From positions 2,464,001 through 2,528,000 of the forward strand of contig OX638351.1 in the NCBI GenBank assembly GCA_951813565.1: a stretch of 64,000 bases of DNA, given 5' to 3'. The notes under the pieces were generated by a model. It worked only from the letters and a program-made list of their open reading frames with translations. It did no database searches and was not told where the DNA came from. This document shows, piece by piece, positions 23,829 through 32,615 of the stretch; position 1 is the stretch's first letter, and each line of letters begins with the position of its first letter. The position numbers and the translations under genes were made by a program. Origin of the DNA: an uncultured Poribacteria bacterium. Lineage in GTDB: Bacteria; Poribacteria; WGA-4E; WGA-3G.

Positions 23829-25050
23829 ATGAAATTTGACAATCAAAAAGGGTAATGTTATGATGGTGTTATCCAGCAAATAAGGAGTGCACCATGCCAA
23901 AACGACGCGAACTCGTTCTTACAGAAGGAGAAAAACAAAAACTCATTGAACATAGAGATCATCACTAACACCCCGATGTCAGAGAGAAAGCCGCTGCTCT
24001 ATTGAAAATAGCCGAGGGTGTTTCTGCACACTGCGTTGCGACCTCTGGATTGCTCAAACGCCGCAAGCCTGATACTGTCTACAACTGGTTAAATATATAT
24101 GCTGATGAAGGCTTTGATGGGTTAATCCGGCGGCGACATGGTGGTGCGAGACATCGGTTTTCAAAAAAAGAAGAGCTGATCGAACGCTTGCGCCAATCCC
24201 CTGGTGAAGTGGCGGAAAAAGTGCCAAAGGTTTTGCGGATACGCTTGCGCCGAGTCGTTGGACGCTTCGTAGGCTTCGTGAAAGTCTTGATTGGTTAGCG
24301 CCCTACACACTCAGCGGTGTGCATCGCGTGCCTTTCTCGGTGTGGTTTGCGTATTCGCTCTGGGCGTGTGCAGCAGTATAGCCCGGATGCTGCGTCCGCC
24401 AAGAAAGTCTATCACCTCTGTGATTGCTTGAGGCAAACAGCGCGTGCGCCTGACAGCCACTTGGTTGTGTTTCTTGATGAAATGGGATATAGACGGTGGC
24501 CGAAGGCAGGGCGGGTTTGGATGCAAGCCGCACCTACGGAAGTGCCGGTCGCCGGGTGTGGTGGCACCAATAATGCGCAATGGCGCGTCATTGGTGCGCT
24601 GAATACGATGACAGGTCAGGTGTGTTATCTTGACAATTACGTTGTCGGGCGTGCGAAAGTCATTGAAATGTATCAGAAGTTAACACAAGTATACCCGCAA
24701 GCAGAGACACTTTACGTTGTTCAAGACAATTGGTCGATCCACAAACATCCGGATGTGCTTGAAGCGTTATCAGAGTTGCCACAGATTGAGCCAGTTTGGC
24801 TGCCGACTTATGCGCCGTGGCTGAACCCGATTGAGAAGTTATGGCGGTGGTTGCGCCAGGATGTGTTGAAGACGCATCAATTTGGCAGTCAGGGGGAGGA
24901 GTTGAGGAGCCGGGTGAACGGATTTCTTGATCGCTTTGCGTTGGGTTCAGATACCTTACTCCGCTATGTCGGGCTGCAAGGCGATGGGCTGCTTGCTAAC
25001 GCTTGTAGACCCCTTAGACTTTACCCAACTTGAACGTCAAAACTCATTAG
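23826..25050 (+). mobile_element. IS630-family IS, degenerate copy 2 (premature TAA about 23966, frameshifts)
   Basis: IR CTAATGAAATTTGAC / GTCAAAACTCATTAG; clearly homologous to 4056..5280. Confidence 0.88.
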
Positions 25051-31380: not shown

Positions 31381-31431
31381 TTATTTTATTATAAACCTTT
31401 TTGTACACTCGTGGATTATCATTGTGAAAGC

Positions 31432-32538
31432 CTAAAATGAATATAAAGCTGTTAAGGAGACAAGCGGACCAAATTCAAACGCATCGCTTTCTTCATATTT
31501 ACCATCAACAAACGCGTCACTATCATCATATAGTGTTTTTTGATGCAATGGTAACAAAAACGAAAGTGATAATGGGACATTGAATGGGGTTTTAATAGAT
31601 GTGCCGAGCGATGCCATGCCAAAAAGAAGTCCAGTATTTTTGTCTATTTCTCCATCCCAATGCGCAAAAGATTGATATATCCCAAGGTAACCTGATCGGA
31701 AAGAAAACCATTTATTCAGGCGATAGTTCAATCCTGCTGAATATGTAAGTTCATTTGAACCACGATATGTTTTGCTGTTCTCGTAGAAAGGTAATTTTGC
31801 GCGGACACTGGTATGAGATGCTAACCCCTTATAGATAGGCAGATTATAGTGTAGGTCTAAGATAGGGTTGAAAGTTCCAGTCCCAAATTGGATATGTAGA
31901 TGCTCCTCTCCCTTCTCTCCGAGTTTCCACGGGTCATCCTCAGTTTTTCCAAATGGAATCGACGTTCCGATATGCCCCATAAAATAATCACCCTCTGCCA
32001 AAACACCCAGTCTATAATATCCAAGAAAAACTTCTGAATCTGTTAGACCGGTGTAGGTTTCATTGCGATGATGGATAAACCCATTCTCTTCAATCGCTTC
32101 CCATTGTTCTTGAGTATATTCAACACCGTCAATCTTCTCAATAGTTGCTTCTTGAACTTTGGATTCATAAGGGAGGTTTGCTTCCAATATCCATTGAGAA
32201 CCGAGTAGATATTTTAACCCAACATCAAAGCGATAAACGTTTAAGACGACATGATGTCTATGCTCTGGGACTTTGTCTATTTTTCGGTTTCCGTTTAGAC
32301 TAATGAAAACTCCTTCATCTTCAAGATGTCCACCTTGTGCATCAAACCACCGCATCGTGCTGAAAGAGGCTTGAAATCTTTTGCTATCTGAAGTCAAACT
32401 GACTCCACCCATCCCGCCACGTGGGATTGCGGGATTGCTTCAGGCGCCTCAGCTTTCTTGCCCAAACACATTATGTAGAACACCGAAAGGAAAAAGAAAC
32501 TGAAGGATTAGTAGTGCGTAAAAAATTTTTGTTTCCAT
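31432..32538 (-). CDS. Putative outer-membrane beta-barrel, candidate selenoprotein with U-G-A-U motif (368 aa with two TGA read-throughs)
   Basis: ATG 32538 in frame with ORF 31432..32412; signal peptide METKIFYALLILQFLFPFGVLHNVFG; TGA at 32451-32449 and 32442-32440; C-terminal ..ALYSF. Confidence 0.7.
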
Positions 32539-32615
32539 AGAATTTTATATGCGACAGCATAAATATACGCCTACTCCTAACTTATTGTGAGCTGTTTTTA
32601 TAGTACAGAGGGTGT

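Follow-up and report, generated by a model that had tools for sequence, protein, structure and literature searches.

The window analysed here, a 64,000-nt stretch of the genome of an uncultured Poribacteria bacterium, carries on its minus strand a frame of 368 codons that runs from an ATG at 32538 to a TAG at 31432 and is interrupted only by two TGAs. The strand reads METKIFYALLILQFLFPFGVLHNVFGQES-TGA-GA-TGA-SNPAIPRGG-MGGV...ALYSF-TAG, and the read-through protein has the motif QES-U-G-A-U-SNP directly after a hydrophobic leader (Kyte-Doolittle 11-residue maximum of 2.4). The ORF called mechanically starts only at 32412 and, as the initial annotation had pointed out, lacks a signal peptide; the proposal that two TGAs at CxxC spacing lie behind a leader, with no other stop, is borne out by the full frame (Table 1). 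The gene sits between an aldo-keto reductase gene and a gene for a small membrane protein on the same strand. An out-of-frame ORF of 29 codons (minus strand, 32560-32471), with an AGGAG about 12 nt upstream of it, overlaps the gene start. Scanning for promoters and terminators gave results near chance (14 found, 9.6 expected). A metatranscriptome contig of a relative spans 31420-32550; it shows neither strand nor transcription. Elsewhere in the window, two ORFs at 24002-25033 resemble, by eye, pieces of an IS630-type transposase.

Table 1 Features of the two-UGA barrel gene (positions in the window)
Feature	Position	Strand	Basis or remark
Full gene, 368 aa, TGA as Sec at codons 30 and 33, stop TAG	31432..32538	-	Read-through kept in relatives
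Truncated ORF as mechanically called, 326 aa, without signal peptide	31432..32412	-	Annotation artefact
Predicted signal peptide, residues 1-26	32461..32538	-	Hydropathy; cleavage between VFG and QES judged by eye
UGA1 (Sec30)	32449..32451	-	TGA in 109/121 loci, TGY in 12/121
UGA2 (Sec33)	32440..32442	-	TGA in 121/121 Poribacteria loci; Cys in the CxxC clade
Hairpin 1, register 1, ATCCCGC/GCGGGAT, 11-nt loop without G in its first two positions	32411..32435	-	Folding, pair counts
Hairpin 1, register 2, ATCCCAC/GCGGGAT, A.C mismatch, GUG loop at +20 after UGA2	32411..32427	-	
Hairpin 2, TGGAGTCA-GTT-TGACTTCA, 8 bp, GUU loop at +41 after UGA2, SECIS-like	32389..32407	-	Folding, covariation; missed in the initial annotation
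Low-confidence linker or plug, residues 34-54	32377..32439	-	pLDDT 38-65
12-stranded COG4313/FapF-type outer-membrane beta-barrel, residues 55-368, terminal Phe	31435..32376	-	AlphaFold, fold search
Invariant His71 and His95, long beta1-beta2 hairpin	32254..32328	-	41/41 and 77/77 rows
Invariant His156-His157 (HHRNE)	32068..32073	-	Both alignments
His213 and His215 (HLHIQFGTG)	31894..31902	-	Alignments of 41 and 77 rows

Both TGAs are genuine letters of the genome. An independent contig over 30954-33000 shows 2 letter differences, none within a TGA, and thus agrees with our sequence at both positions, which speaks against the sequencing errors that the initial annotation had named as a risk. 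Its premise that TGA is a normal stop elsewhere also stands, because 444 of 2,277 ORFs of at least 300 codons in this genome end in TGA. Genome-wide, 5,985 in-frame TGA-N6-TGA sites were counted, 12 of them preceded by a Met and followed by a long open frame; within these 12, a GU-loop hairpin of at least 6 pairs was present only in this gene and its paralogue. The double-TGA arrangement exceeds what is expected by chance. The paralogue (L153, C1:4586046-4587080) carries a second UGAU motif in the same genome and is about 55% identical.

A match to the barrel was found in 140 of 176 genomes of the phylum, and every full-length match listed has an in-frame TGA. The 110 Poribacteria loci of our first set all read U-x-x-U-S-N. 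With 36 divergent loci added, the non-redundant set reached 121 loci extending to about 35% identity, 109 with UxxU and 12 with CxxU; UGA2 was invariant, UGA1 alternated only with TGC or TGT, and a Met plus hydrophobic stretch lay ahead of the motif in 119 loci. Searching metagenomes with a distant alignment yielded 80 loci (54 UxxU, 17 CxxC, 2 CxxU), the remaining seven being cut by contig ends (4) or reading G-P-A-U (2) or U-P-A-G (1). Among distant database proteins, 10 of the 149 listed have a signal peptide with CxxC at the same place. Homologues with a motif call carried Cys or Sec at both positions, and the TGAs are conserved in relatives, in agreement with the initial reading of the motif; UxxC was absent from 184 non-redundant loci. 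In a quick IQ-TREE analysis of the barrel only (77 rows, midpoint root), the 12 CxxC rows formed one clade, and no fewer than four changes were needed to account for CxxU, each of them at the first position. UGA1 therefore appears to have reverted to Cys several times independently in relatives. One genome (G055, C1:6235483-6239058) holds two neighbouring copies, one with two TGAs and one with a single TGA, and gene copies in pieces were seen in two others (G039, C56:9090-10082; G090, C1:1198170-1198801).

These distributions bear on the possibility that the TGAs are true stops, so that the locus would be a pseudogene or would encode a short leader and, from Met43 or Met62, a separate cytoplasmic protein. 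Databases hold only the short product, with the UxxU motif included in none of the 120 homologues listed, and no Shine-Dalgarno-like motif lies just upstream of ATG 32538. Against this, signal peptide, TGA pair and SNP motif stay in one frame throughout the 121 loci and also in unrelated lineages, Met43 lacks conservation, and a barrel without a signal peptide would have no obvious route to the outer membrane. We give the true-stop reading practically no credence.

The genome is equipped for selenocysteine insertion. It encodes selA (E 1e-157), a selB wing domain adjoining the gene for tRNA-Sec (UCA), and a selD that itself has an in-frame TGA (CAGU); all four components, selA to selD, on which the initial annotation had made its proposal depend, were thus found. 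Across the phylum, selA was detected in 163 of 176 genomes, and the 8 of 140 barrel-bearing genomes that gave no selA match are all fragmented drafts. It is very probable, judging from these sequence patterns, that SelB-directed recoding places Sec at UGA1 and UGA2 and that the gene encodes a di-selenoprotein. The idea that a tRNA-ReC/SelC* system instead inserts Cys at one or both UGAs, or that Trp is inserted there, could draw on the enrichment of tRNA-ReC in genomes with UXXU hydrogenases (accessible part of PMC13582414) and on two database proteins, P0216 and P0266, that have Trp at a UGA position. The Trp of P0266 is probably a gene-calling artefact, because its close relatives L143 and L144 have TGA/TGC in the DNA, and in both proteins it probably reflects gene calling under another code. 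Moreover, across 121 loci TGA swaps only with TGY and never with TGG. ARAGORN found one UCA tRNA (the tRNA-Sec), one tRNA-Cys and one tRNA-Trp, and an RF01852 search gave a single match above the cut-off; by these models, which are not SelC*-specific, an extra SelC-like tRNA was absent from this 95% complete genome. We consider decoding as Cys or Trp highly improbable.

Downstream of the UGAs, the mRNA can form a hairpin in two registers, and the stems are those given in the initial annotation: ATCCCGC/GCGGGAT starts 13 nt past UGA1 and ATCCC/GGGAT 12 nt past UGA2. The bSECIS model describes a stem with a G[G/U] loop pattern 16-37 nt after the UGA. By our own scripts, the register-2 loop falls within this range for either UGA, at +20 from UGA2 and +29 from UGA1. 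At 13 of 14 other Sec sites in the genome, a hairpin loop with G first or second lies at +17 to +24, a few of the stems having only 4 bp, and the geometry of register 2 is, as far as sequence can tell, the SECIS geometry usual in this genome. Register 1 alone would be a poor SelB site, because a G at the start of its loop is missing in this gene and present in only 39 of 109 loci. A G at +20/+21 by itself was discarded as a SECIS criterion, being uninformative: 14 of 14 Cys loci also have it.

Both registers, scored as at least 6 of 7 pairs, were present in 89 of 109 Poribacteria UxxU loci, 3 of 12 CxxU loci, none of 14 CxxC loci and 5 of 48 other UxxU loci, and each register shows some double changes. 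When 12 nt behind each UGA were masked in folding runs, mimicking the ribosome footprint, the hairpin of this gene moved from register 1 (pair probability 0.96) to register 2 (0.93). The switch appeared in a little over half of 95 loci and was weak in the paralogue, which has hairpin 2 and a weaker hairpin 1 with an AAG loop. Folding of the single sequence gave a z of only -1.9. In naked folding of 72 nt, UGA2 pairs with the 3' arm of hairpin 2; this pairing was rejected, as most non-Poribacteria arms cannot form it. The suggestion that one sliding SECIS serves both UGAs is thus upheld in part: within Poribacteria the two registers are conserved and the slide is reproduced under the footprint mimic, but register 1 lacks the loop-start G here, the paired registers are rare outside the phylum, and a second hairpin downstream is better conserved.

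This second hairpin was present in 107 of 109 Poribacteria UxxU loci, 12 of 12 CxxU loci, 31 of 48 other UxxU loci and the only locus of a fifth class (1/1), and in none of 14 CxxC loci; the count was anchored on GT and is therefore partly circular, with a background of 122 in 919 windows. Unanchored RNAalifold on 117 loci also recovers it. In the alignment, 95.5% of cells pair and double changes occur at 6 of the 8 pairs; across 59 diverse loci, double changes occur at all 8, with a score of 0.453 compared with 0.275 after shuffling, although related loci are not independent in any of these statistics. In 13 Cys loci, covariation did not rise above shuffles, and the 59% of cells that pair do so from shared amino acids. 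RNAalifold energy was abandoned as a control, since the Cys alignment folds too (-10.9 kcal/mol), and named-pair counts and codon tests were used instead.

The codon test concerns the loop. All 116 Poribacteria loci located by protein pattern (5 were not located) have AGT or GGT as the loop codon of hairpin 2, the loop U being a synonymous third position, while the same genes use AGT and AGC at 411:321. At the homologous Gly codon, 2 of 12 Cys loci have GGT. Hairpin 2 thus seems to decay in the Cys clade, a loss that counts as one event, since all Cys forms fall into one clade. A single hairpin can suffice, given that 17 of 48 non-Poribacteria UxxU loci fail the hairpin-2 test and a 7-row clade has only hairpin 1, there with a GGUC loop. 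Conversely, a CxxU paralogue clade has a CCA loop on hairpin 1 and keeps hairpin 2. These two natural contrasts would fit a need for at least one GU loop.

How two UGAs three codons apart are decoded can be envisaged in two ways. We lean towards both hairpins acting in decoding. Hairpin 1 in register 2 would be the canonical SECIS for UGA2, within range of UGA1 as well, and hairpin 2 would provide a second SelB dock, with SelB binding presumed at each. As the ribosome moves on, hairpin 1 would slip from register 1 to register 2, and hairpin 2 would stay at a near-equal distance from the ribosome at both UGAs. Alternatively, one ordinary SECIS, hairpin 1 in register 2, could serve both UGAs; hairpin 2 would then pause the ribosome, protect the mRNA or the like, and the duplicated register would be a by-product of Pro-x-x-Pro codons. 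The position of the register-2 loop relative to both UGAs, the clade with hairpin 1 only and the scarcity of the double register outside Poribacteria all suit this simpler scheme. For UXXU hydrogenases, moreover, a single SECIS has already been proposed, with the decoding mechanism left open (accessible part of PMC13582414); the barrel gene differs in having two conserved hairpins. On the other side, the G[G/U] loop signature of hairpin 2 is fixed at a synonymous site in every Poribacteria locus located and decays with the loss of Sec, and the 6 of 12 CxxU loci whose hairpin 1 lacks a G at +20/+21 have all retained hairpin 2. If the hairpin served stability only, its loop would be free to vary. 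The single-SECIS scheme falls somewhat short of an even chance in our view, and we slightly favour the two-hairpin model. Compared with the bSECIS model, hairpin 1 in register 2 matches in stem, G-led loop and distance, and hairpin 2 fits in its stem and G[G/U] loop; it departs in that hairpin 2, whose loop is at +41 from UGA2 and +50 from UGA1, lies outside 16-37 nt, and the signal as a whole departs in having two tandem elements, the first with two registers in Poribacteria. The sequence of the linker encoded here is probably shaped in part by the two hairpins.

AlphaFold models and a fold search confirm the barrel that the initial annotation had deduced from the terminal Phe of ALYSF. Two models gave a confident barrel with pTM 0.82 and 0.86, and structural searches matched it to FapF (5o65, Z 24.7) and Pput2725 (4rl8, Z 24.4), with an rmsd of 2.5-2.6 over about 255 residues. 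These were the top two matches in both models (Z 23-25), the next best reaching 18-19.6. The N-terminal arm is poorly predicted (pLDDT 56-65 in one model); residues 34-54 overlap the N-terminal plug of Pput2725 in the structural alignment, at a position of low confidence. Searches at the sequence level placed the protein less clearly. Pfam and NCBIfam returned no match for the 368-aa protein (PF13557 included, at E 0.1), weak PF13557 matches occurred in 4 of 41 homologues (best 1.1e-6), and a PDB sequence search with the homologue alignment gave a chance match only. The ESM Atlas contributed clusters of hypothetical proteins and one look-alike cluster with 35% of members assigned to PF13557. 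Six histidines are conserved; His213 is invariant in both alignments, and His215 is kept in at least 90% of the 41-row alignment and invariant in the 77-row one. Strand order, used without coordinates, would put all six on the outer face. It is close to certain, in our judgement, that the signal peptide exports the chain and that BAM folds a 12-stranded barrel of the COG4313 type with QES-U-G-A-U at the mature N-terminus.

The metal-handling part of the initial proposal draws support from the gene neighbours of relatives, from which such a role may be predicted. Of 63 non-redundant metagenome loci, 39 have an HMA-thioredoxin gene directly upstream (CxxC forms 13 of 14, Sec forms 26 of 49); in 5 of the 24 without it, fewer than 200 bases of upstream sequence are available. 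The partner has a WCGPC thioredoxin domain, and one barrel homologue (P0133) is itself fused to an HMA domain. Domain-level tblastn of neighbours further revealed MerT, MerA, CusA, CopA/P-type ATPases, CsoR, multicopper oxidase and MbnP near Cys forms and some UxxU forms; YtkA, YHS or OEP flank 8 of 12 Poribacteria CxxU loci, but a neighbouring metal gene was present at only 4 of 79 Poribacteria UxxU loci; these counts are not unbiased, because the 20 queries were hand-picked from 248 scanned neighbour ORFs. A first count by cluster (17/35) was discarded as inflated by shadow ORFs. The HMA-thioredoxin fusion was absent from all 91 Poribacteria loci and from this genome, and no metal gene lay within the 13-18 kb examined around this locus or the paralogue. 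At two metagenome loci (L178:4357-4929 and L181:2506-3078) the HMA motif of the partner reads U-P-S-G-U with two TGAs, so that barrel and partner would both be di-selenoproteins. On another metagenome contig (L231:3363-4400), a Sec-containing selD (CGUAAK) adjoins a UPAU barrel gene.

Taken as a whole, a barrel plugged by a Sec pair that acts as a soft-metal gate, with outer histidines and a periplasmic HMA/thioredoxin system, is the reading we consider reasonably likely. We regard its functional core as probable with nearly the same reserve: a gated channel through the outer membrane that would carry a soft metal, for example Cu(I), Hg(II) or Ag(I). The six conserved histidines on the outer hairpin and loops would collect the metal ion, and the selenolate pair on the flexible N-terminal plug would bind it like the CxxC of an HMA domain. 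The ion could then be passed to, or taken from, a periplasmic HMA chaperone, in either direction, and the thioredoxin domain would keep the selenolate pair reduced. In most other lineages the chaperone-reductase would be the fused gene directly upstream; here, its part could be taken by exported Sec-HMA and thioredoxin-fold proteins encoded elsewhere in the genome. Throughout, we infer Sec insertion, export, the positions of histidines and plug, and the identity of the metal.

In the main rival reading, the same di-selenoprotein barrel could instead use UxxU as a redox switch or a structural diselenide, not as a metal ligand. The channel, of the COG4313 kind, would then import a small organic or organometallic molecule; its plug would be stapled or released by oxidation, with the thioredoxin partner resetting the switch. 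A UxxU diselenide is known from fish SelL, and the periplasm oxidises thiols. The closest folds are channels for hydrophobic solutes or peptides with an N-terminal plug, the partner has the WCGPC domain just described, and this locus is without metal neighbours. However, the six conserved histidines, the HMA fusion, the HMA domain of the partner and the mer/cus/cop neighbours point to metal, and we find the redox or structural role unlikely.

The proposal of a soft-metal gate can be extended to the family and its decoding. Tentatively, and with distinctly less confidence than in either part alone, these proteins may be widespread outer-membrane soft-metal gates that ancestrally had two Sec residues and are decoded by a tandem SECIS. 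Its two SelB-docking hairpins would pre-load two Sec-tRNAs, and in Poribacteria hairpin 1 would slip over the 9-nt advance of the ribosome so that the second dock keeps a fixed distance.

Comparison with known systems places the protein nearest to COG4313 (Pput2725, FapF; PF13557 Phenol_MetA_deg), with which it shares the 12-stranded barrel behind an N-terminal segment (rmsd 2.5-2.7 over about 250 residues across models). Identity to its members is only 10-14%, and the protein fails the PF13557 profile test. In Pput2725 about 14 N-terminal residues plug the lumen, and characterised COG4313 channels carry hydrophobic molecules or amyloid subunits (both from the accessible part of PMC4493636); UxxU, the six conserved histidines and the metal-gene neighbours of relatives are features of the present family, unlike the hydrophobic solutes or amyloid subunits by which COG4313 members are described. 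PcoB (7pge) is an outer-membrane barrel whose N-terminal domain is flexible and binds metal, and its gene is found together with copper genes (accessible parts of PMC12509749 and PMC9210255). It offers a works-like analogy only: the structural match is much weaker (Z 11.5-12.7), the arm of PcoB is rich in His/Met whereas the arm here has UxxU and no His, and no sequence relationship was detected.

Outer-membrane selenoproteins catalogued in the accessible part of PMC13188914 are a TonB-dependent receptor of the FCYXU type (NF049945) and the GSU2204/MtrB-PioB family (NF041027). These are predicted Sec-containing envelope proteins too, but they have one Sec each and belong to different families. 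Bacterial UxxU selenoproteins include the metal-binding protein NF041115, a Prx-like oxidoreductase, an FmdB-family regulator and Group 4 [NiFeSe] hydrogenases (accessible parts of PMC13188914 and PMC13582414); they likewise have two Sec at CxxC spacing and CxxU/CxxC relatives, but are soluble proteins or enzymes. NCBIfam 20.0 gave no family match for any of 77 read-through members. The family is absent from the 119-family Table 1 of PMC13188914, as far as that source was accessible, from the deep-Sep new-family table (PMC12013277) and from PMC9312934 and PMC13326102, within the accessible parts of these three. Neither the family nor a bacterial SECIS in tandem is described in the literature that our search returned; Haft and Tolstoy 2025 or BSepDB Table S2 could list the family. 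In the sources covered it is uncatalogued. The observation is real and conserved, and the gene combines a bacterial selenoprotein, built on a barrel of the COG4313 fold, with an unusual recoding signal made of two hairpins.

If so, a large selenoprotein family has been systematically mis-annotated in an unusual place, the outer membrane, with the two-Sec form as its common state and the Cys form as a minority clade. In sponge symbionts, and in many bacteria still uncultured, selenium use would be connected with the handling of metals at the cell surface. The gene also represents a compact natural cassette of about 65 nt, in which both hairpins covary and for each of which natural knock-outs exist; it suggests a testable way in which bacteria could insert two Sec three codons apart, and it may help the engineering of multi-Sec proteins.

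Further hidden selenoproteins were noticed in the genome. At eight TGA sites (G000:C1 660557, 5150303, 5151710, 4467097, 4296954, 4297404, 1111075 and 4948687; L235-L243) we found FdhA, three Prx-like proteins, two thioredoxin-fold proteins and a peroxiredoxin with two Sec in tandem; in most cases a hairpin with a G-led loop lies at +17 to +24. Possible unlinked partners of the barrel are two exported HMA proteins encoded side by side, with GMT-U-G-x-C (G000:C1 4462206 and 4462776; L235:6025-7008), and a cytochrome c-WD40-HMA fusion that shares this motif (G000:C1 360117; L238). A DUF5069-family protein with Y-P-U-P (G000:C1 1853941; L242:852-1061) has a G-loop hairpin at +20, and DUF5069 is absent from the 119-family table in the accessible part of PMC13188914. 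Finally, a secreted F5/8 type C protein carries a vicinal Cys-Sec pair (KWCU) followed by a GGA-loop hairpin at +21 (G000:C1 3348992; L241:953-1609).
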